Source: an uncultured delta proteobacterium (GTDB lineage Bacteria > Myxococcota > UBA727 > VGSZ01). From it: a stretch of DNA of 64,000 bases. This document shows positions 1 to 8,594 of the stretch, piece by piece; position 1 is the first letter of the stretch, and each line of letters opens with the position of its first letter. The translations under genes and the position numbers were made by a program. A model generated the notes under the pieces. That model worked only from the letters and a program-made list of their open reading frames with translations. It was not told where the DNA came from and did not search any database. Where the stretch lies: assembly GCA_963775425.1 (NCBI GenBank), contig CAVZJB010000011.1, forward strand, positions 544,001-608,000, written 5' to 3'.

Positions 1-6
1 GGCCGG

Positions 7-3000
7 ATGCAGCGGCTCCTCGGCTACAAGCACAACAAGGGGCGGGCGGTGCGGGCGCTCGCCGACGCCCCCGTCGACATCGCGGGCGCGCGCATCCACC
101 CCGCGCCCCTCGAGCTGCAGCGCCTCGCCGGGCTCTCCTGTGACCGCGACCTCTACCGCGCGGAGCAGGACGTGGTGCGGCTCCTCGTCACCATGCCCGG
201 CGGCGGCAACGCCGTCGTACGCGTCTCCATGAACGGCGCGCCGCTCACCGAGCGCCGCGTGGAGCTCGCGAAGGGCGTGTGCGTCGAGTCCCTGGCGATG
301 CTCCTCCCCGGGCGCTACGAGGCGCAGCTCGTCGTCGCCGGCGTCGACACCGGCGAGCGCGCGCGCTTCACCGTGGCGGAGTACACCCTGGCGCCGCTGT
401 CGGCGCGCCTGCTCGAGCACCGCATCGATCGCGCGGCGCAGACGCTCACCGTCACCCTCGGCGTGGAGAGCTACGGCGTGCATTGGGATCGCCCGCTGCG
501 CGGTGCGCTGGTCGAGAGCGGCCGCGAGATGTCCGAGGTGGTCTTCACCATGGAGCGGCCCGGGCGCTTCACCGGCAAGGCGCGCGTCGCGGGCGAAGGG
601 CCGTTCACGGTGCGCGCCGCCGCCGTCGACGACGCCGCGCGTACGGCGGACGTCGCGCTGCCCGGCACGCGCCGCCGTGAGCGCCAGCTCACGCTCGCCG
701 GGGAGCTCGGCAGGGAGCTGTTCGTGTCGCTGTTGCCCGAGCCGGGCGCTGTGGCGGTGCGCGGCCTGCACGTCAGCCAGGGCGACTTCGTGGCCACGCC
801 CGTCGTGCTCGAAGATCCGGTCGGTGATCGCGCGTGTCTGCGCGCCAACGAAGACATCGAGTCGCTGGTGGTGGCGGCGTGGGATCCCGCGCGCGACGCG
901 TTCAGCGTCGTCGACCTCGGCGACGTCCCGCGTGGGAGCAGCGCGTCGCTCGACGTGCCGCGGCCGATGTGTGTGGCGTTCCTCGGGTGCTTCGTGAACG
1001 GTGAGCCCTTCGAGGCGTTCACGGCGCTGTTCGCCGCCGAACGCCCCGTCTCGCTCGAGGTGCCGGACACGTGTCCGCCCGGTGGCGAGATCGCCGTCAC
1101 CGTGCGCACCGGGCGGAGCGCGCCGCTGCCGATGGTCCTGTGTGTGCGCGACGAGCGCCTCACGGCGAGCGACGCGCCCCAGCAGGTGTTGGCGGCGTCG
1201 GCCAGGCGCGCGCTGTCGGCGGCCACCGCCGGGCTCGGCGACGACTTCCGCTTCGTGCGCCTCGAGGAGCTGGCGGCGCCGGCGGCCGCGCCCCCCGTGC
1301 GCACGGGAGGCACCCGCGGAGGCATCGAGGTGTCGGTGCGCGGGCGGGGACAGCCGGCGCGCATCGAGCACTTCCACGACAGCGAGGTCAGCATCGGCCG
1401 CCTGCCGGGGACCCAGGTGATGCTCGCGCGCCCCAACGTCAGCAAGCTCCACGCGCGCGTTGTCCTGCGCGACGGCAAGCTCGTCATCGTCGATCTCAAG
1501 AGCACCAACGGCACGTACGTGAACGGCAAGCGGATCGGCGCGCCGCAGGTGTTGAAGGACTCGGACCGGGTGACGGTCGGCGACTTCTCGCTGACCTTCG
1601 CCGTCGGCGCCGCCGCCGCGCCCGACGACGACTTCGACGACGACGTCGCGGTGCTCGCGGCGCCCGCCCCGAGGGCCGCGCGCGCGCCCGGCGTGCGCGA
1701 CGAGATCCTCGAAGACGACCTCTTCGCCGTGTCGGCCGGTGACGACGGCCTCGTGCTCGACGACGAGGAGGAGGCGTCCACGCGCGAGCTGCGCCTGGGC
1801 GACCTGGGATCGCTCCGGGAAAAGGGCGGGGGCGGCGTCGAGGACACGCCGGTGCGCGCCGCCTTTCCCGAGGTGCTCTTCTGCGGGCTCGTGGAGGTGG
1901 GCGACGGCGACGTCGTGCGCGTCCCCGCCGGCGAGGCCCTCGGGGGGTTCGCGGTCGAGATCTTCTTCGTCGACGGCGGCGACTTCGGCGCTGCGCGCGC
2001 GCGCGTGCAGGTGGATCAGGCCGTGCGCGTGGACCTCGACATCGCGCCGGAGATCGACCCAGAAGATCGCGTGCAGGGCACGCTGCGCGTCGGGTGCCGC
2101 TCGGGCAGCGCGCGCGTCGCCCTCGTGTGCGACGGCCGCTCCGTGCCGCTGAAGACGGTCGACGGCCGCATCGTCGGCGTCGACGACGCGCTGCCGTCGG
2201 GCACGGAGCTGTTGTTCGACGCCGGTCCGGGCGTCTGGCTCGCCACCGCCGCGGCCGCCGTCGGCGGCGACGAGGACGCCATGGAGGTGCGCGTGGGCGC
2301 GCCCGGCGTCTCCCGGAGCGTCGCGCGCGAGATTGTCCTTGTGGACCGCGGCAAGCGCGTGACGCTCGACGGCGAGATGTTGTCCCTGCGCGTGCTGCCC
2401 GGCCTCGACGAGCCGTTCCGGATGCTCGCCGAGGCCACGGCCGGCTACGCGCACCTGTGCTGCGAGCAGACGGCCGCCAAGATCCTCTCGGCGGTGGTGA
2501 TGTTCCTGTCCGCCGACGAGCCCGCGCTCCGGCAGCGCGCGGAGGAGATCATCCTCGCCGGCATCGCGCGCGAGCGGCAGATGATCCGCCGCGACCGCGA
2601 CGGCCGCGGCCGCGGCTTCGCGATGTACCCCGAGGAGCCGTCGGTCTCGGAGCACTACACGCCCAAGGTGGTGCAGCACCTGTGGAGCCTCGACGGGCTC
2701 GCGGAGCTGAACGGGCTGTCAGAGCAGCTCGTCGACGCCGTGCGCGAAGGCATCGCCATGGCCGACGACGTCGCCGGGGCGTGCCGCATGGCCCGCGTCC
2801 CCGAGCGCGTGCAGACCATGGACGACGCGTGGGCGCTCGCGGTGCGCGCGCCGCGCCGCCGCCGGGAGGCGCTCGAGCTCGTCGCGCGCACCGTGTGCCT
2901 CGACGAGAGCGGCCCGCGCCTGCGCGCGCCGGCGCGCCGCGTGGACGAGCGCGCCACGCTCGCGTACGCGGCGGCGGTCCTGTTCGCGTCGGGGAAGACG

Positions 3001-3618
3001 CAGACCGCCATTCGCCTCGCCAACGAGGTGCTGCGCCAGCTCAACGAGCAGGGCCGGCTGTACTCGACGCTGGACTCGGTGGCCGCCATCGCCCTCATGG
3101 TGCAACTGCGCCGGACGGGCATCGTGGGCGGCGGCGCCGAGCTCGTGGTGAACGGGCGGACCGCCACCGCGCTCGAGGCGTCGCGGCTGTCCGACCAGGC
3201 GGAGGTCGTGGAGGTGAAGGAGGGCGTGTGCGTCGTCGAGGTCACGCGTGTGCGCGAGGACCGCTGGGCCGAGGCGCGCGCGACGTTCCCGCTCAAGGTC
3301 GGCTTCCGCGACGGCGCCGGGCGCTCGATCACGGGCTTTCGACGCGGCGACCGCGCCGAGCTCGTGGTCACGCTGCCGCGCGGCTACGCCGAGGGCGACC
3401 TCGTCCACGTGTGCTTGCCGCCGGCGATGGCGTGGCTCGAGGGCGGCGGGCGCGTCAAGCGCTTCAGCGTGGACTTCGCCGGGCGGGACGAGGTCCGCAT
3501 CCCCGTCGTCGTCACACAGGAGATCAACGGCCGTCAGCGCTTCGCCGTCGCGGTGCGGAACATGTTCCACGAGGAGCGCGCGGCGACGCCGGGGTTGATG
3601 GTGATCGAGAGCGCGTGA
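7..3618 (+). CDS. Alpha-2-macroglobulin-like thioester protein with internal FHA domain (5' end may lie outside the window)
   Basis: CxEQ motif YAHLCCEQT (2458-2469); A2M-like VRAAFPEVLF, GFAMY, YSTLDS and LPP segments; FHA signature IGR..SKLHA..DLKSTNGTYVNG (~1381-1600); frame is open back to base 1. Confidence 0.75.
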   Translation: MQRLLGYKHNKGRAVRALADAPVDIAGARIHPAPLELQRLAGLSCDRDLYRAEQDVVRLLVTMPGGGNAVVRVSMNGAPLTERRVELAKGVCVESLAMLLPGRYEAQLVVAGVDTGERARFTVAEYTLAPLSARLLEHRIDRAAQTLTVTLGVESYGVHWDRPLRGALVESGREMSEVVFTMERPGRFTGKARVAGEGPFTVRAAAVDDAARTADVALPGTRRRERQLTLAGELGRELFVSLLPEPGAVAVRGLHVSQGDFVATPVVLEDPVGDRACLRANEDIESLVVAAWDPARDAFSVVDLGDVPRGSSASLDVPRPMCVAFLGCFVNGEPFEAFTALFAAERPVSLEVPDTCPPGGEIAVTVRTGRSAPLPMVLCVRDERLTASDAPQQVLAASARRALSAATAGLGDDFRFVRLEELAAPAAAPPVRTGGTRGGIEVSVRGRGQPARIEHFHDSEVSIGRLPGTQVMLARPNVSKLHARVVLRDGKLVIVDLKSTNGTYVNGKRIGAPQVLKDSDRVTVGDFSLTFAVGAAAAPDDDFDDDVAVLAAPAPRAARAPGVRDEILEDDLFAVSAGDDGLVLDDEEEASTRELRLGDLGSLREKGGGGVEDTPVRAAFPEVLFCGLVEVGDGDVVRVPAGEALGGFAVEIFFVDGGDFGAARARVQVDQAVRVDLDIAPEIDPEDRVQGTLRVGCRSGSARVALVCDGRSVPLKTVDGRIVGVDDALPSGTELLFDAGPGVWLATAAAAVGGDEDAMEVRVGAPGVSRSVAREIVLVDRGKRVTLDGEMLSLRVLPGLDEPFRMLAEATAGYAHLCCEQTAAKILSAVVMFLSADEPALRQRAEEIILAGIARERQMIRRDRDGRGRGFAMYPEEPSVSEHYTPKVVQHLWSLDGLAELNGLSEQLVDAVREGIAMADDVAGACRMARVPERVQTMDDAWALAVRAPRRRREALELVARTVCLDESGPRLRAPARRVDERATLAYAAAVLFASGKTQTAIRLANEVLRQLNEQGRLYSTLDSVAAIALMVQLRRTGIVGGGAELVVNGRTATALEASRLSDQAEVVEVKEGVCVVEVTRVREDRWAEARATFPLKVGFRDGAGRSITGFRRGDRAELVVTLPRGYAEGDLVHVCLPPAMAWLEGGGRVKRFSVDFAGRDEVRIPVVVTQEINGRQRFAVAVRNMFHEERAATPGLMVIESA

Positions 3619-3630
3619 CACCCTCGCCGG

Positions 3631-4215
3631 ATGCCTTCGGTGATCGAGACCCCACGCGAGCTCGCCATCCGGCTCCTCGCCGACAACCGCGATCACATCG
3701 GGCGGTCCGTGTATCAGCTCACCTGCAGGCTGCAGCCCCACTGGGCCGACGTCGACGAAAACGCCTTCGTGCACAACACGCACACCGTGCTCCGTGCCGT
3801 GCAGGACTACCTCGCCGGCGGCGATCCGGAGGTCATCATCAACCTCGCACGCGATCTGTTGCGCGTGCGTCGCCTGGCCGGCTTCACCGGCCCCGAGTTC
3901 CACCTGGCCCTGCACACGTATCTGCCCGTGGTGCGCAAGGCGTTCCTCGCCCGCGCGCCCACGATGCGGCAGGGGCTCGCCGCGTTCGACGTGGCGGAGT
4001 CCATCTGTCTGCCGCTCTTCTCGCGCCTGCTCGAGGCCATCGCGCGCGCCGACGAGCAGACCGCGCCGGACGCGCGGCCGCCGTTCCACGGCCGTCCCTT
4101 CGAGGAGGTCAGCGTGGGCGATCAGATGCCCGCGTTCCTGCGCGAGCCGGCCGACGAAGAGTCCGACGAAGACCGCACCGACCCGCACGCGCGCCGCCCC
4201 GCCCGCCGCTCCTAG
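3631..4215 (+). CDS. Hypothetical helical protein, possibly RsbRD-N-like
   Basis: GC3-biased 194-aa ORF; RVRRLAGF-x-EF pattern resembles RsbRD N-terminal domains; acidic tail. Confidence 0.5.
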   Translation: MPSVIETPRELAIRLLADNRDHIGRSVYQLTCRLQPHWADVDENAFVHNTHTVLRAVQDYLAGGDPEVIINLARDLLRVRRLAGFTGPEFHLALHTYLPVVRKAFLARAPTMRQGLAAFDVAESICLPLFSRLLEAIARADEQTAPDARPPFHGRPFEEVSVGDQMPAFLREPADEESDEDRTDPHARRPARRS

Positions 4216-4216
4216 C

Positions 4217-4621
4217 TCAGAGGTGACCGCGCGCGGCGCGCAGGATGTCGACGTAGCTGACGATGCCGACGAGGGTGCCGTCGTCGGCGCTCACCACGGG
4301 GAGGGCGCCGCAGCGGTTCTCGAGCATCGCCTCGATGGCGTCGTCGATGTCGTCGTCGGGCTCCACCACCGCCGGCTCGCCGGTCATGATGCTCGCCACA
4401 GGCTGGCGCAGGCGCGCGCGCAGCCCGTCGGGCTCGGCGAGCAACGCCTGGTGCGAGAAGCGCGCGAGGTCGCGATCGCTGATGATGCCCTTCACCTCGC
4501 CTTGATCGACGATCGGGAGATGCCGGATCTCCTCGGTTTCGAGCGTTCGCATGGCGTCGAACACCGACGTGTCGAGCTTCGCCACCAGGGGATCCCGGGT
4601 CATGATGTCGCGGACCAGCAT
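4217..4621 (-). CDS. CBS domain pair protein
   Basis: MLVRDIMTRDP..IRHLPIVD..GIISDRD..ALPVV..GIVSYVDIL; GGAGG RBS upstream of ATG 4621. Confidence 0.9.
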   Translation of the reverse strand: MLVRDIMTRDPLVAKLDTSVFDAMRTLETEEIRHLPIVDQGEVKGIISDRDLARFSHQALLAEPDGLRARLRQPVASIMTGEPAVVEPDDDIDDAIEAMLENRCGALPVVSADDGTLVGIVSYVDILRAARGHL

Positions 4622-4676
4622 CTCTCTCTCCTCCAAGCACGGGGCCTCAGGGGCCGCGATCGCTGCCCGCTGCGTG

Positions 4677-4692
4677 TGCACCGCGCGTGCCG
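4677..4692 (-). promoter_or_regulatory. Putative sigma-54 (-24/-12) promoter of CBS gene
   Basis: CGGCACGCGCGGTGCA, GG-N10-GC spacing, ~55 nt upstream of the start. Confidence 0.5.
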
Positions 4693-4817
4693 CTCGCGGG
4701 GTCACCGACGGCCGCGTTCCTTCGTTGGGCCGGACGGCACGCCCGGTGTGAGAGCACACAGCTCCGGTGCAATCCCGCCCCATAGATGGGGGGGATGGCT
4801 GTGCGTATCCTTTCCGC

Positions 4818-6185
4818 ATGATTTCCGTCAGCACCCTCATGTGCCACGCGCCCATCGTCATCCCCGACGTCGCCGGGGTGCGTGGGGAGCAATGCGTTCA
4901 CAGCACCGCCGCGATGCGCGCCGCCGCCGCTCGCGTGGTGCAAAAACACCCGGATGTCGTCGTGGTGTTGTCGCCGCACACGCCGCGCCTGCCGGGCTTC
5001 GGCATCGTCGCTGGCGTCGGCCGCGGCCGGACCGGTCGCATCACCGGGTCCTTCGAGGACTTCGGCGCGCCGGCGGTGCAGATCGACCTGCCCGCGGCGG
5101 AGGACGCCACCGCCCGCCTGCTTCACAAAGCCGAGCAAGCCGGCGCCGACGTCTCCGCGATCGCGTTGGGCAAGCTCGATCACGGCGCCGCCGTGCCCCT
5201 CGCCTTCCTGGTTGAAGCCGGCTTTTGCGGACCCACGCTCGTCGTGGGCCTGCCGCGCGCTCCCTCGGCCGAGGGGATGCGCGCCTTTGGCCGTCTGCTC
5301 GCCGAGGCCGCCGGCGACGAGCGCTGGGCCGTCGTCGCGTCCGGCGACTGCAGCCACCGCCTCATCCCCGGCGCGCCTGCCGGCTTTCACCCCGAGGCGC
5401 AGCGCTTCGACGACGCGCTCGTGCGCGTGGTGACCGCAGGCGAGCGCCTCGAGGGCATCGACGCCGGCTTGCGCGACCTCGCCGCCGAGGACGTCGTCGA
5501 CACAGTGCAGATCGCGGAGGCGGCGTCGGGCTCCACACTCGGGCGCGAGGTGCTGAGCTACGAGGGCCCGTTCGGCGTCGGCTACCTCGTCGCCGTCTTG
5601 TGCGACCCGGACCCGGCTCCGTCCTTCCGCGCGAAGCCGGGCGCCGACCCCGAGGAGCGCGCCAACGTCCTCGTCGACGTCGCCGAGGACGCGCTGAGGG
5701 CGCACCTCGAGCGGCGTGGTCGGCGCGCGTTCGACACCGGACACGTCGACGCCATGGCCGTCAGCGGCGCCTTCGTCACCTGGCGCGAGGGCCGCGACCT
5801 GCGCGGCTGCGTCGGCCGCATGACGCTCGACAAGCCGCTCAGCGAGGCGGTGGCCGAGCTCGCGGTGTCGTCGGCGTCGGCGGACCCGCGGTTCCTGCCG
5901 GTGACCGCCGCGGAGGCCCCACGCCTCGACGCGGAGATCACGCTGCTGTCGCCGAGCGAGCACGTGAACGACGTCGGTGAGCTCGACCCGCGCACCTGGG
6001 GCGTGGAGGCCAAAAACGGCTGGCGCCACGGCGTGCTCCTGCCGGACATCGACGGAGTCGATAGCGTCGAGCAACAGCTCAACATCGTCCTTCGCAAGGC
6101 GGGCATCCGGCCCGACGAGCCCTTCACGCTGCGGAAGTTCCGCGCGCAAAAGGTGACGAAGAAGACCGCGGAACAAAGCGCATGA
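4818..6185 (+). CDS. amrA: AmmeMemoRadiSam protein A: LigB/MEMO-like domain fused to AMMECR1 domain
   Basis: HAP, SPH, LDHG, SGDCSH, YEGPFGVGY, then GAFVT..LRGCVG, DPRF, GVLLP. Confidence 0.85.
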   Translation: MISVSTLMCHAPIVIPDVAGVRGEQCVHSTAAMRAAAARVVQKHPDVVVVLSPHTPRLPGFGIVAGVGRGRTGRITGSFEDFGAPAVQIDLPAAEDATARLLHKAEQAGADVSAIALGKLDHGAAVPLAFLVEAGFCGPTLVVGLPRAPSAEGMRAFGRLLAEAAGDERWAVVASGDCSHRLIPGAPAGFHPEAQRFDDALVRVVTAGERLEGIDAGLRDLAAEDVVDTVQIAEAASGSTLGREVLSYEGPFGVGYLVAVLCDPDPAPSFRAKPGADPEERANVLVDVAEDALRAHLERRGRRAFDTGHVDAMAVSGAFVTWREGRDLRGCVGRMTLDKPLSEAVAELAVSSASADPRFLPVTAAEAPRLDAEITLLSPSEHVNDVGELDPRTWGVEAKNGWRHGVLLPDIDGVDSVEQQLNIVLRKAGIRPDEPFTLRKFRAQKVTKKTAEQSA

Positions 6186-7258
6186 ACGTCCCCGGCCGCT
6201 ATCACCACGCAGAAGGCGAGCGCTTCCGCTGCGACGTCTGTCCGCGCGGCTGCCTGCTGTCTCCCGGACAGCGCGGCTTCTGCTACGTCCGCGAGGGAAC
6301 CGCGGACGGCGTCGCCCTCACCACGTGGGGCCGCTCGTCGGGCTTCTGCATCGATCCCATCGAGAAGAAGCCGCTGAACCACTTCCTGCCGGGGACATCG
6401 GTGCTCTCGTTCGGCACCGCCGGCTGCAACCTCGGCTGCTCCTTCTGCCAGAACTGGGACATCTCCAAGTCGCGCCAGGACGACACGCTGCAGGCGTCGG
6501 CGTCGCCGGACGCCATCGCGGCGCTGGCGGTGAAGGCCGGCGCGCGCTCGGTGGCGTTCACCTACAACGACCCCACCGTCTTCGTGGAGTACGCCGTCGA
6601 CACCGCCAGGGAGTGCAAGAAGCGCGGCGTGAAGTCCGTGGCGGTGACCAACGGCTACATCAGCGGCAAGGCGCGCGAGGACCTCTACGCCAACATGGAC
6701 GCCGCCAACATCGACCTCAAGGCGTTCACCGAGGAGTTCTACACGAAGGAGACGCTCGCGCACCTGGAGCCGGTGAAGGACACGCTGCGCTACGTGGTGC
6801 ACGAGACGGGCTGCTGGGTCGAGGTGACCACGCTCCTCATCCCGGGGAAGAACGACGGCGACGACGAGATCGACGCGCTCACCCGGTTCATCGCCGGCGA
6901 GCTCTCCGTCGACGTGCCGATCCACTTCACGGCGTTTCACCCCGACTACAAGATGACGGACGTCGGGCGCACGCCCGCGTCCACCCTGCGCCGGGCGCGC
7001 GAGATCGCGAAGAAGAACGGCTTGCGCTGGGTGTACACGGGGAACGTCCACGACGTGGAAGGGCAGAGCACCGCCTGCCCCGGCTGCGGCGCCGTCCTCG
7101 TCGAGCGCGACGGCTACACCCTCGGCCGCTACGGCATCGCCGCCGGCGACGACGGCGCCGGGCGCTGCGCGTCGTGCGGCTGCGCGGTGGCCGGCACGTT
7201 CGAGGCGCGCCCCGGCACCTGGGGCGCTCGCCGCGTGCCCCTCCACATCCTGGCGTGA
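6182..7258 (+). CDS. amrS: AmmeMemoRadiSam radical SAM enzyme
   Basis: CDVCPRGC, DPIEKKPLNHF, GCNLGCSFCQNWDIS (CxxxCxxC), C-terminal CPGC; ATGA overlap with amrA. Confidence 0.92.
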   Translation: MNVPGRYHHAEGERFRCDVCPRGCLLSPGQRGFCYVREGTADGVALTTWGRSSGFCIDPIEKKPLNHFLPGTSVLSFGTAGCNLGCSFCQNWDISKSRQDDTLQASASPDAIAALAVKAGARSVAFTYNDPTVFVEYAVDTARECKKRGVKSVAVTNGYISGKAREDLYANMDAANIDLKAFTEEFYTKETLAHLEPVKDTLRYVVHETGCWVEVTTLLIPGKNDGDDEIDALTRFIAGELSVDVPIHFTAFHPDYKMTDVGRTPASTLRRAREIAKKNGLRWVYTGNVHDVEGQSTACPGCGAVLVERDGYTLGRYGIAAGDDGAGRCASCGCAVAGTFEARPGTWGARRVPLHILA

Positions 7259-7325: not shown

Positions 7326-8594
7326 ATGCTTCGTCTCGACGGCAAGCACATCCTCGTCGGCGTGGGCGGCAGTATCGCCGCGTATCGCGCTTGTGACGTC
7401 GTGCGCCGCCTGCGCGAGCTCGGGGCCAGCGTTCGCGTGGCGCCGACCCGCGCGGCCTCGGCCTTCGTCACGCCACTGACCTTCGAGGCGATCTCCGGGG
7501 AGCCGTGCCTCGGCGGCGTGCTCGAGCTCGAGCGCGGTGGCCACGCCCCGCCGGCGACGCCCGAGGCCGGCGCGCACGCGGCGCCGGCGCGGTCCGTCAT
7601 CCCGCACATCGAGGAGGCCTACCGCGCCGCCTGCGCCGTCGTCGCGCCGGCCACCGCCGACCTCGTCGCGCGGATGGCCCACGGCTTCGCCGACGAAGCG
7701 CTGCTCGCCACGTTGCTCTCGTTCCGCGGTCCGCTCGTGGTGGCCCCGGCCATGGAGACCCGCATGTGGGATCACCCGGCCACGCAGGACAACGTCGGCA
7801 CGCTCGTCACCCGCGGCGCGTTCGTCGTCGGTCCCGCCGCGGGCCCGCTCGCGTCGGGGCGGAGCGGCGCGGGGCGCCTCGCGCCCGTCGAGGAGATCGT
7901 CGAGGCCGTGGTCTACGCGCTCGCCGACAAGGACCTCGCCGGCAGGCACATCGTCGTCACCGCCGGCCCCACCGTCGAGGACGTCGACCCCGTTCGCTTC
8001 CTCACGAACCGTTCGTCGGGAAAGATGGGCCTGGCCCTCGCCCGCGCCGCCGCGCTGCGGGGCGCCCGCGTCGACCTCGTCCACGGGCCGCTGCGCGCCC
8101 CGCCGCCCTCGACGCCGGGCCTGACGCCGCGCCCGGTACGCTCGGCGCAGGAGATGCTCGACGAGACGCTCTTGCGCATCGACGGCGCCGACGTCGCCAT
8201 CCTGTGCGCCGCCGTCGCCGACGCGCGCCCCGCCAAGCCTGCGCGCAAGAAGCTGAAGAAGACCAAGGGGGAGCTCGCCGCCATCGCGCTCACGCCCACC
8301 GAGGACATCCTCGCCACGCTCGGCGCGCTGCCGTCGCGCAAGCAGGGCCGGCCCGTGCTCGTGGGCTTCGCCGCCGAGACCGGCGACGTCGCCCGCTACG
8401 CCCGCGACAAGCTCGTCCGCAAGAAGTGCGATCTGGTGTGCGCCAACGACGTCGGAGAAGAGGGGAGCGGCTTCGACGTCGACACCAACCGGATCCTGCT
8501 CGTGAAGAAGAAGGGCAGGGACAGGTGGCTGCCGAAGCTCGACAAGGCGGACGCGGCCTGGCGCATCCTCGACGAGGTGAAGGCGCTCCTATGA
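7326..8594 (+). CDS. coaBC: Bifunctional phosphopantothenoylcysteine decarboxylase/ligase
   Basis: GSIAAY, APATA, APAMETRM, TAGPTVEDVDPVRFLTNRSSGKMG, GFAAET, ANDV. Confidence 0.95.
   Translation: MLRLDGKHILVGVGGSIAAYRACDVVRRLRELGASVRVAPTRAASAFVTPLTFEAISGEPCLGGVLELERGGHAPPATPEAGAHAAPARSVIPHIEEAYRAACAVVAPATADLVARMAHGFADEALLATLLSFRGPLVVAPAMETRMWDHPATQDNVGTLVTRGAFVVGPAAGPLASGRSGAGRLAPVEEIVEAVVYALADKDLAGRHIVVTAGPTVEDVDPVRFLTNRSSGKMGLALARAAALRGARVDLVHGPLRAPPPSTPGLTPRPVRSAQEMLDETLLRIDGADVAILCAAVADARPAKPARKKLKKTKGELAAIALTPTEDILATLGALPSRKQGRPVLVGFAAETGDVARYARDKLVRKKCDLVCANDVGEEGSGFDVDTNRILLVKKKGRDRWLPKLDKADAAWRILDEVKALL

Follow-up and report, generated by a model that had tools for sequence, protein, structure and literature searches.

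A probably cytoplasmic alpha-2-macroglobulin-like protein with an FHA domain in its bait slot

Can a protein built like an alpha-2-macroglobulin (A2M) work inside a bacterial cell, and what would an FHA domain do in its bait region? The question is raised by the first gene of a 64,000-nt stretch of myxococcotal DNA (G000:C11:544001-608000 of the assembly; hereafter, the window). The original prediction, made from the letters of the window, was that this gene encodes a compact A2M-like thioester protein that carries an FHA domain in the bait region and acts as a cytoplasmic covalent trap controlled by Ser/Thr phosphorylation. As judged by a family profile and by predicted structure, the gene product (P0003) is a member of the superfamily of A2M and thioester-containing proteins (TEPs), and the fold is well supported. 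Its location is probably cytoplasmic. The reading that we favor, with a probability of approximately one half, is that of a cytoplasmic snap-trap in which covalent capture would be triggered by a protease and in which the FHA domain would add a layer of phospho-control.

In the window, the gene appears as a stop-free frame on the forward strand (7-3618, +; 1203 translated amino acids) that is open through the 5′ end, and its stop-to-stop extent reaches 2 kb further upstream. For the start search, 12 kb of upstream DNA were added (locus L003). The longest stop-to-stop frame was rejected as the gene: its first 525 codons, where the other strand carries a gene, give nonsense rich in Arg and Ala. 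A credible start is the ATG at G000:C11:543536 (L003:11536, window -464), 465 nt before window base 1. With GGGAGG in front of it, this ATG sits 2 nt past the stop of the upstream gene, and the two closest homologues start at the equivalent residue. With this start, the complete protein would have 1360 amino acids, of which the window holds the final 1203 codons from position 7; counted from the first base, the 3′ 1205 codons and the stop occupy 1-3618 (+; frame translation and upstream extension). The N-terminus therefore lies outside the window, as had been suspected, and the added part begins with an FHA domain. Residues 1-92 (FHA1), a disordered segment (95-113), and most of an alpha/beta domain (120-175) are on the 5′ side of the window. 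The gene is single-copy in the source genome. The motifs named in the original prediction were found at the positions given there (MVLCVRDER, 1132-1158; VRAAFPEVLF, 1852-1881; CCEQ, 2458-2469; GFAMY, 2614-2628; YSTLDS, 3061-3078). They are not chance occurrences, because an alignment of 115 sequences shows almost no variation in CCEQTAAK, GF..YP, and YST.DS. This set, which consists of P0003 and 114 relatives, is also the basis of the family profile.

Searches with the single protein returned FHA domains only. Pfam and NCBIfam gave FHA matches for P0003 and no A2M, macroglobulin (MG), or thioester-domain (TED) match (PF00207, PF07678, PF01835) at E ≤ 1, and phmmer against the PDB found FHA chains only. 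Recognition of the A2M relation therefore needed the family profile and the fold. The 114 relatives found in the homologue search have 865-1438 residues, and NCBI names one of them an "alpha-2-macroglobulin family protein." PF00207 was listed for 22 of 36 scanned relatives, in each case immediately behind the FPE motif, and reached the 21-bit cut-off in 11. Against the PDB, the 115-sequence profile matched human A2M (E = 2.4e-7), E. coli ECAM/YfhM (E = 4.8e-6), and Salmonella A2M (E = 2e-3). In the profile alignment to human A2M 695-782, the family R..FPEVLF block corresponded to TVRKYFPETWIW, directly after the human bait region, and the family G-R-L-Y-S-T-V-D-S corresponded to G-G-F-S-S-T-Q-D-T of the human TED.

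An AlphaFold2 model of residues 161-1360, built with the family alignment, had a mean predicted local distance difference test score (pLDDT) of 85.7 and a predicted TM score (pTM) of 0.77, and low confidence was confined to parts of the internal FHA domain and to the acidic linker. With this model, Foldseek returned more than 40 A2M, TEP, and complement entries from the PDB (E from 5e-32 to 1e-26), among them CD109 (5e-32), Salmonella A2M (1.8e-31), ECAM (5.8e-31), and TEP1 (6.7e-31), as well as C5, A2ML1, A2M, and C3. TM scores (TMq) were 0.39-0.43 for native forms and 0.22-0.30 for activated forms. VIA-align gave Z scores of 16-19, with 790 residues aligned for the TEP1s, 783 for Salmonella A2M, and 761 for native CD109. 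Model residues 617-1200 aligned to positions 745-1476 of the C3 alpha chain (2a73_B, Z 15.9), spanning MG6′, MG7, CUB, TED, and MG8. A language-model look-up of residues 775-1360, which we treat as a lead only, returned A2M-family clusters exclusively. The A2M/TED fold proposed for this gene was thus recovered from the model.

A second model, of residues 1-600, had a pLDDT of 90.6. It comprised FHA1 (1-92), the disordered segment (95-113), a small alpha/beta domain (120-175) bearing the family G-x-x-F-V-F motif, 28 strands between residues 180 and 499, half of an MG domain (505-540), and a helix (548-563). Residues 133-580 aligned to the whole C3 beta chain (1-627; 3t4a_A), with 393 residues aligned, a Z score of 10.9, and a root-mean-square deviation (rmsd) of 6.2 Å. 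The protein is compact in its length, as the original prediction had it, but its N-terminal half still covers the full MG1-MG6 ring of C3. In these models the domain layout is that of the eukaryotic TEP core (MG1-MG8, CUB, and TED), with each domain trimmed.

From the N-terminus, the order of domains in P0003 is FHA1, the small alpha/beta domain, a compact MG ring, a bait slot with FHA2 and an acidic linker, the R-x-x-FPE motif, MG6′/MG7, a reduced CUB, the TED, and MG8. The part of the MG beta-sandwich ring that is modeled within the window (residues 156-557; 1-1206, +) closes with the initial half of an MG6-like domain, which is split, and with the conserved VRDxRLT (model pLDDT > 90 and the alignment to the C3 beta chain). 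VRAAFPEVLF (+ strand) is taken as the R-x-x-F-P-E motif that follows the bait region, on the basis of the profile alignment to human A2M and ECAM and of the PF00207 matches at this spot in relatives. Residues 778-957 (1867-2406, +) were assigned from secondary structure, pLDDT, and the alignment to the C3 alpha chain; they complete the MG6-like domain and continue through an MG7-like domain into the initial strands of a CUB-like domain, which is reduced. The return strands of the CUB-like domain and a C-terminal beta-sandwich resembling MG8 or a receptor-binding domain (residues 1195-1359; 3118-3612, +), which bears the nearly invariant C-V-R-N-M-F-x-E-E-R, were assigned from the family alignment, the model, and VIA.

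Between the nearly invariant K557 and P778, the sequences cannot be aligned across the family. This slot is 74-339 residues long and consists mostly of acidic (SLDLE-like) or Pro-rich (GFGPPPP-like) low-complexity, disordered sequence. In P0003 (residues 558-777; 1207-1866, +), the family alignment, profile, and model place in it the end of the 548-563 helix, a 34-residue linker, an FHA domain, and an acidic disordered linker. Pfam (PF00498) found two FHA stretches in the full protein, at approximately 20-90 and at 618-682 (114.9 bits, cut-off 20.7); on the 1203-residue frame, the match was at residues 461-525 (62.3 bits, E = 6e-17). The Pfam core of the bait FHA (residues 618-682, within a fold of approximately 597-690) lies at 1387-1581 (+) and includes IGR (620-622), SKLH (636-639), and STNGT (656-660). 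In the PDB search its closest solved relatives were GarA/OdhI (E from 2e-10 to 9e-10; GarA, 2.1e-10). FHA1 could be superposed on GarA, FhaA, EmbR, and OdhI with VIA Z scores of 16-17 over 90-95 residues (rmsd 1.4-2.0 Å). The residues that we take to form the phosphothreonine (pThr) pocket are the Arg of GR, the Ser and His of SxxH, and the Thr/Asn of TNG; in the bait FHA, they are retained in IGR, SKLH, and STNGT. In the 77 residues between FHA2 and VRAAFPEVLF there are 23 D/E and 7 K/R, and the acidic low-complexity part (residues 694-770; 1615-1845, +), with a pLDDT of 30-47 and this composition, is likely to be protease-accessible bait. Within this linker, T749 belongs to a motif, A-(S)-T-[KR]-x-[LIM], common to P0003 and its two closest relatives, and has Leu at +3; it is a candidate intramolecular ligand of the FHA domain. 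An FHA domain at approximately 1381-1600, an acidic stretch that likewise lies between MVLCVRDER and VRAAFPEVLF, and a bait position for the domain had all been predicted, and each agrees with these results, the last because the R..FPE block aligns to human A2M right after the human bait region. In a distant clade (P0085-P0098, P0117, and others), proteins with a zinc-ribbon N-terminus were also seen to have a TPR-like insert at approximately 390-450 in the MG ring and Pro-rich GFGPPPP repeats in the slot.

The contents of the slot were surveyed more widely with HMMER, using a core profile against 1.84 billion cluster representatives. The search yielded 1118 proteins at E ≤ 1e-3, 622 at ≤ 1e-10, and 444 at ≤ 1e-30. 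The wider slot and motif counts refer to the best 150 representatives of this search, and the count of MerR fusions refers to 242 family proteins. A folded domain occupied the mid-protein slot in 34 of the 150 representatives, MshEN in 26 and FHA in eight (P0008, P0021, P0066, P0121, P0151, P0175, P0005, and P0242), and the slot was only disordered in the other 116. The presence of FHA domains in homologues is therefore real, but as a lineage-specific plug-in and not as a property of the whole family. A FastTree tree computed without the insert region requires at least eight changes of slot state (FHA, MshEN, or none), so slot domains were gained repeatedly; for the N-terminal FHA, it requires three.

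Within the source genome, no FHA domain is closer to the bait FHA than that at the N-terminus of a TadA/VirB11-type ATPase of the T2SSE superfamily (47% identity, E = 3.3e-30; gene at G000:C11:490265-492244, L097:3265-5244), and the next-best genome match to the bait FHA region had an E value of 2.4e-11. The bait FHA of the P0003 clade scored 114 bits against the ATPase FHA, whereas the score against its counterparts in P0008 and P0021 was only 40 bits. The ATPase FHA is the likely donor, or a sister, of the P0003 bait FHA. A large open reading frame (ORF) directly before the ATPase gene (L097:3-2987) looks Omp85/BamA-type by eye only. MshEN, in turn, is the N-domain of MshE/PilB-type ATPases. 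P0184 carries MshEN together with positions 3-114 of the T2SSE model inside the slot, and in P0075 and P0181 that T2SSE piece is C-terminal. Where they can be traced, the folded inserts are N-terminal modules of secretion or pilus ATPases. In P0175, a Ser/Thr kinase (Pkinase) domain is fused in front of a bait-FHA member. Some of the fusions in P0175, P0191, P0184, P0075, and P0181 come from short contigs, and chimeric assembly is possible.

The kinship of the inserts with ATPases is what favors the first alternative to the snap-trap, an integrated-decoy sensor. Here, the slot domains would mimic modules of secretion or pilus ATPases, phage or competitor proteins that bind or cut those ATPases would be captured in their place, and a MerR module (described below) would report to transcription. 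The similarity of the bait FHA to the FHA of the TadA/VirB11-type ATPase, the MshEN domain in 26 of 150 slots, the T2SSE core piece in P0184, P0075, and P0181, and the repeated gain of slot domains all fit this model. However, the large majority of slots hold no folded domain, the other bait-FHA clades are without an identified ATPase donor, tblastn found no T2SSE ATPase gene beside the family loci, and no attacker is known. FHA and MshEN are also common signaling modules that may have been recruited for their ligands (pThr, c-di-GMP) instead of for mimicry. We therefore regard the decoy model as unlikely.

The TED of P0003 is predicted to be an alpha/alpha toroid of approximately 237 residues (958-1194; 2407-3117, +) by alignment, profile, model, Foldseek, and VIA. 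It contains CCEQ (C975-Q978), GFAMYP (2614-2631), and YSTLDS. Conservation of CCEQ among homologues had been made a test of the original prediction, and in the first set of 115 sequences we observed CCEQ in 107 and CIEQ in two; the remaining six were degenerate (GAEV twice, GCEP twice, SCEA, and CCVQ). CxEQ was kept in 134 of the 150 cluster representatives; five were N-terminal fragments, and the motif was lost in 11 full-length proteins (11/145). The residue after the thioester Cys was also Cys in 107 of 115 members (P0003 975-976, window 2458-2463), and at the motif, CAEQ, CVEQ, and CLEQ were seen in the canonical paralogues from the source genome (three of four carry CxEQ). The motif is well supported, and we infer from it thioester formation and covalent capture.

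Losses of the motif bear on a second alternative, a noncovalent scaffold or regulator. In such a protein, the thioester would be unused and the body would be a platform (as in MagD/YfaS and C5) that docks through FHA, MshEN, and MerR modules onto kinase, c-di-GMP, and pilus or secretion machinery. P0003 retains CCEQ, but its two nearest relatives, P0005 and P0007 (49 and 47% identity), are without CCEQ, FPE, and approximately 80 residues of the MG ring. Among the first 115 sequences, all six motif-less members were among the 17 with a slot domain (6/17, compared with 0/98 without one), and five of the 11 full-length representatives that lost the motif have a slot domain. In the wider, less redundant set, however, the association was weak (5/34 with a domain, 6/111 without), and related sequences are nonindependent, so the loss of CxEQ may be linked to a folded bait domain as a tendency only. 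CCEQTAAK is nearly invariant in the family and intact in P0003. Accordingly, the scaffold model appears quite improbable for this protein.

Directly upstream of P0003 is a gene for a MerR-like protein (P0004; 196 amino acids; PF13411, 46.9 bits, cut-off 21.6), which ends 2 nt before the P0003 start, so that on sequence the two genes form a translationally coupled pair. The NCBIfam MerR, CueR, and CadR models matched only the helix-turn-helix (HTH) part of P0004, far below their cut-offs, and PADLOC gave a weak mad1 HTH match (1.1e-5). A MerR-like homologue was present in the same upstream position at 14 of the 50 loci with enough upstream DNA (the P0003 locus included), and tblastn added two; these loci belong to Myxococcota, Acidobacteriota, Gemmatimonadota, and Pseudomonadota. 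A MerR HTH was fused to the macroglobulin N-terminus in 11 of 242 family proteins (Pfam confirmed four). Past the HTH, the aligned MerR-like proteins continue with a Pro-rich linker that varies and a tail of strand and helix that is conserved; a Cys/His metal motif is missing. A palindrome, TTGACAGTAT[AT]TACTGT(CA), lies just 5′ of the MerR-like gene (L003:10934-10951, window -1066 to -1049) and was kept in 10 loci from four phyla (L003, L005, L014, L022, L027, L033, L044, L046, L077, and L079). A relaxed pattern matched 13 times in 1.26 Mb of loci, and 10 of these matches were just 5′ of a MerR-like gene. The start codon of P0004 is uncertain because the palindrome overlaps its first ATG in the source genome. 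Co-folding of P0004 with P0003 residues 110-560 gave scores of 0.02, 0.44, and 0.00 (mark, 0.32), which speak neither for nor against binding.

This partner could belong to a chemical stress sensor, in which the thioester or the vicinal Cys975-Cys976 would react with nucleophiles, electrophiles, or oxidants and the change would be passed to the MerR-type regulator. MerR-family proteins are known for the sensing of metals, oxidants, and drugs, and small amines open A2M thioesters. The adjacent or fused MerR-like gene with its conserved operator-like palindrome and the second Cys, which is nearly constant here and variable in canonical A2Ms, are in line with such a role. Yet a chemical sensor would need neither a hypervariable disordered bait nor plug-in protein-binding domains, and the MerR-like tail is without metal-binding Cys/His motifs. 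We consider this explanation very unlikely.

A lipobox and a hydrophobic N-terminus are both absent from all 115 family members. Over residues 1-45, the maximum 12-residue Kyte-Doolittle window had a median of 0.86 and a highest value of 2.07 (n = 115). The same test applied to the canonical A2M paralogues of the source genome gave 2.43-2.87, followed by Cys, for three of four. These four canonical genes (L093-L096, at G000:C17:263358-269348, C17:305220-311777, C16:686530-690015, and C16:1240708-1249464; open frames of 1162-2919 codons) pass PF00207; three match A2M_BRD, MG2, and bMG10, and two of those match TED. N-terminal additions in the P0003 family include FHA (8/115), a zinc ribbon, the MerR HTH, ankyrin repeats (P0191), MshEN (P0171), and a Ser/Thr kinase (P0175). 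The family was assigned to the cytoplasm because of the missing export signal in 115 of 115 members and of these cytoplasmic-type fusions, and for P0003 itself a cytoplasmic location is probable and well supported. An upstream export signal would have spoken against the original prediction; the 5′ extension encodes a cytoplasmic-type FHA domain instead. Archaeal A2M homologues are described by Makarova et al. (2021) as typically carrying signal peptides. A conventional extracytoplasmic protease trap exported by a nonclassical route is highly improbable for P0003, given 115 of 115 proteins without signal peptide or lipobox, N-terminal fusions of cytoplasmic type (FHA, MerR HTH, kinase, zinc ribbon, ankyrin), and a genome that already holds four canonical A2M genes, at least three of them with signal sequences, even though every characterized A2M or TEP protein that we know of acts outside the cytoplasm (see also the snap-trap review PMC12939704).

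The favored reading is therefore best set out in full. P0003 would be a monomeric snap-trap like the periplasmic A2Ms of bacteria, but intracellular. An endopeptidase would cleave the disordered bait linker; it could be a death protease of the cell itself or a foreign enzyme, brought by a phage or as the effector of a competitor. The MG ring would then rearrange and expose the buried Cys975-Gln978 thioester, which would acylate a lysine of whatever the bait holds. Two roles can be proposed for the bait FHA. As a targeting device, it could tether a pThr-marked protein beside the warhead; as a gate, it could bind its own phosphorylated linker (candidate T749, with Leu at pT+3) and thereby hide or expose the bait, as in GarA/OdhI. 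A link to kinases is suggested by the Pkinase domain fused to a bait-FHA member in P0175 and by the at least 150 kinase matches and 33 further FHA places of the source genome. The MerR-like partner would be a DNA-binding regulator or the output of the system.

A number of results weigh against this snap-trap. The cytoplasm is rich in nucleophiles, and no thioester A2M is known to us from that compartment. Pfam and NCBIfam, as noted, place no A2M-type domain in P0003, and the loss of the warhead from P0005 and P0007 means that selection on it is not universal in the P0003 clade. PADLOC defense-system models matched neither P0003 nor four relatives. Peptidases were found among only three of 57 immediate neighbors, each of a different family: single upstream same-strand genes for a caspase-like C14 peptidase (L073:6464-7681), a C1-like peptidase (L043:6139-7911), and an S9 peptidase (L034:5615-7666). 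They are too few and too different to form a pattern. As to the phospho-layer, a bait FHA in only eight of 150 representatives implies that phospho-control is not a core property of the family, and the N-terminal FHA keeps IGR but has DRAH (Asp for the pocket Ser) and STHGT (His for the pocket Asn). Kinase neighbors, which the original prediction had suggested looking for, failed to appear: the 35 kb to each side of the P0003 gene are free of kinase genes, the nearest being 35 kb upstream and 52 kb downstream. A kinase/TPR ORF cluster was observed at 18 of 74 loci (Pkinase in 10 of 11 members scanned), mostly in one Obscuribacterales lineage. With the kinase matches of the source genome spread over 8.3 Mb, chance proximity of kinases is common. 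Kinase neighbors were rejected as a conserved partner, since they reflect either one Obscuribacterales lineage or chance in kinase-rich genomes. Of the predicted cytoplasmic covalent trap, then, the A2M fold, the CCEQ motif, and the absence of an export signal stand, whereas the phosphorylation side is weakened by the lineage-specific insert and the missing kinase gene.

A broader model can be put forward tentatively, although we hold it to be doubtful. It sees the family as a cytoplasmic counterpart of complement and A2M that works as a modular sensor, with a thioester chassis, a bait slot that is either disordered or filled by plug-ins copied from ATPases and signaling proteins of the cell itself (FHA, MshEN, the T2SSE N-domain), and a MerR-type output. 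Attack, phosphorylation, or a c-di-GMP signal would be converted into covalent capture and a transcription switch, and the plug-in in P0003 would be a pThr reader derived from a TadA-like ATPase. The family combines the absence of a signal sequence, a warhead motif, a fast-evolving bait, recurrent signaling domains in the slot, and a coupled or fused DNA-binding module. If the interpretation is true, thioester-based capture would extend to the inside of bacterial cells, and the family would offer a natural scaffold for programmable covalent capture within cells. The finding also bears on the origin of complement-like immunity, because the modeled fold layout is closer to eukaryotic TEPs than to ECAM.

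Among species-representative genomes, 99 stretches encoded a relative of P0003, and 79 loci were kept. Of these, 20 were from Myxococcota, 17 from Pseudomonadota (14 Thiotrichales, with carriers that include Thiomargarita, Parabeggiatoa, and Achromatium), 12 from Acidobacteriota, and 12 from Obscuribacterales; Gemmatimonadota, Thermodesulfobacteriota, Cyanobacteriota, Planctomycetota, and others contributed a few loci each. Only two of 30 related genomes carried the gene (46-48% identity). The distribution is rare and patchy, which is the pattern of an accessory gene. Neither a cytoplasmic A2M nor one that carries FHA or MshEN was found described in open-access papers (subscription journals and supplements were not covered); the P0003 family is probably a cytoplasmic, modular-bait clade of the A2M/TEP superfamily for which we found no earlier description. 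A TED-like toroid that lacks the cysteine is mentioned in a 2026 preprint whose subject is ParA-like NTPases.

Clustering of flanking ORFs at 74 loci showed lineage-specific synteny only, and a Pfam scan of the 57 immediate same-strand neighbors gave a heterogeneous list. In the window, a 194-amino-acid ORF (3631-4215, +) begins 13 nt after the P0003 stop and is helical-looking with an acidic tail. It was rejected as a part of the system: it had no Pfam, NCBIfam, or PADLOC family and no tblastn match beside the 79 related loci. Further downstream are a CBS-pair gene (4217-4861, -), a gene for a LigB/Memo-like and AMMECR1 fusion (4767-6185, +) that overlaps the start of a radical-SAM gene (6182-7258, +), and CoaBC (DFP and Flavoprotein; 7326-8594). 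The fusion and radical-SAM genes presumably represent the AmmeMemoRadiSam trio. An alpha/beta-hydrolase gene that begins at the macroglobulin stop or overlaps it was seen at three loci of Thiotrichales (L011:11306-12073, L016:5108-5872, and L017:11322-12080); the L011 hydrolase, which alone was scanned, had Abhydrolase_6, thioesterase, and S33-like matches.

When P0003 was compared with known systems, the best overall fold matches were eukaryotic: CD109 (8s3o), TEP1 (2pn5, 4lnv), A2ML1, A2M, and C3/C5. Eukaryotic TEPs are secreted, glycosylated, and larger, whereas P0003, at 10-15% identity, is probably cytoplasmic, has a folded signaling domain in the bait, and is without the anaphylatoxin, C345C, and receptor-binding functions. 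For the bait FHA, and also for FHA1 (Z 15-17), GarA/OdhI (2kfu, 6i2p, 2kb3) are the closest solved relatives, and they are the model for the proposed gating by T749. GarA/OdhI change function when their FHA domain is bound by a pThr located in their own flexible tail; in P0003, the FHA is embedded in a macroglobulin of 1360 residues, and the candidate pThr is C-terminal to the domain. Plant NLR-ID proteins are integrated-decoy receptors that carry copies of an attacker's targets. They resemble the P0003 family in having a conserved sensor chassis with repeatedly inserted target copies, a comparison by concept only that implies no homology. The warhead has been lost in P. aeruginosa MagD, E. 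coli YfaS, and complement C5, as in P0005, P0007, and 11 of 145 representatives, whereas P0003 keeps CCEQ. MagD and YfaS are described in PMC5764988 as periplasmic components of a multi-gene operon.

With the type I bacterial A2Ms ECAM/YfhM (4ziq, 5a42, 4rtd) and Salmonella A2M (SaA2M; 4u48), P0003 shares the MG ring, the bait slot, R-x-x-FPE, the CUB, a TED with CxEQ, and a C-terminal MG domain. It differs from them in the absence of a lipoprotein signal and in a structured core of approximately 1020 instead of approximately 1650 residues. The extra N-terminal MG domains of SaA2M and ECAM are absent from P0003, and the alignment begins at their residue 361-385. P0003 is also without Pfam matches to bMG3, bMG5, bMG10, A2M_BRD, and TED, unlike the canonical paralogues L093, L094, and L096 of the same genome, which have such matches. 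Type I bacterial A2Ms have a pbpC gene as neighbor; transpeptidase and transglycosylase families were absent among the scanned P0003 neighbors, in a scan that included no search aimed at pbpC. FHA domains, the CCEQ motif, and a MerR-like partner, in contrast, set P0003 apart from ECAM and SaA2M, with which it likely shares the mechanism of a monomeric covalent snap-trap.

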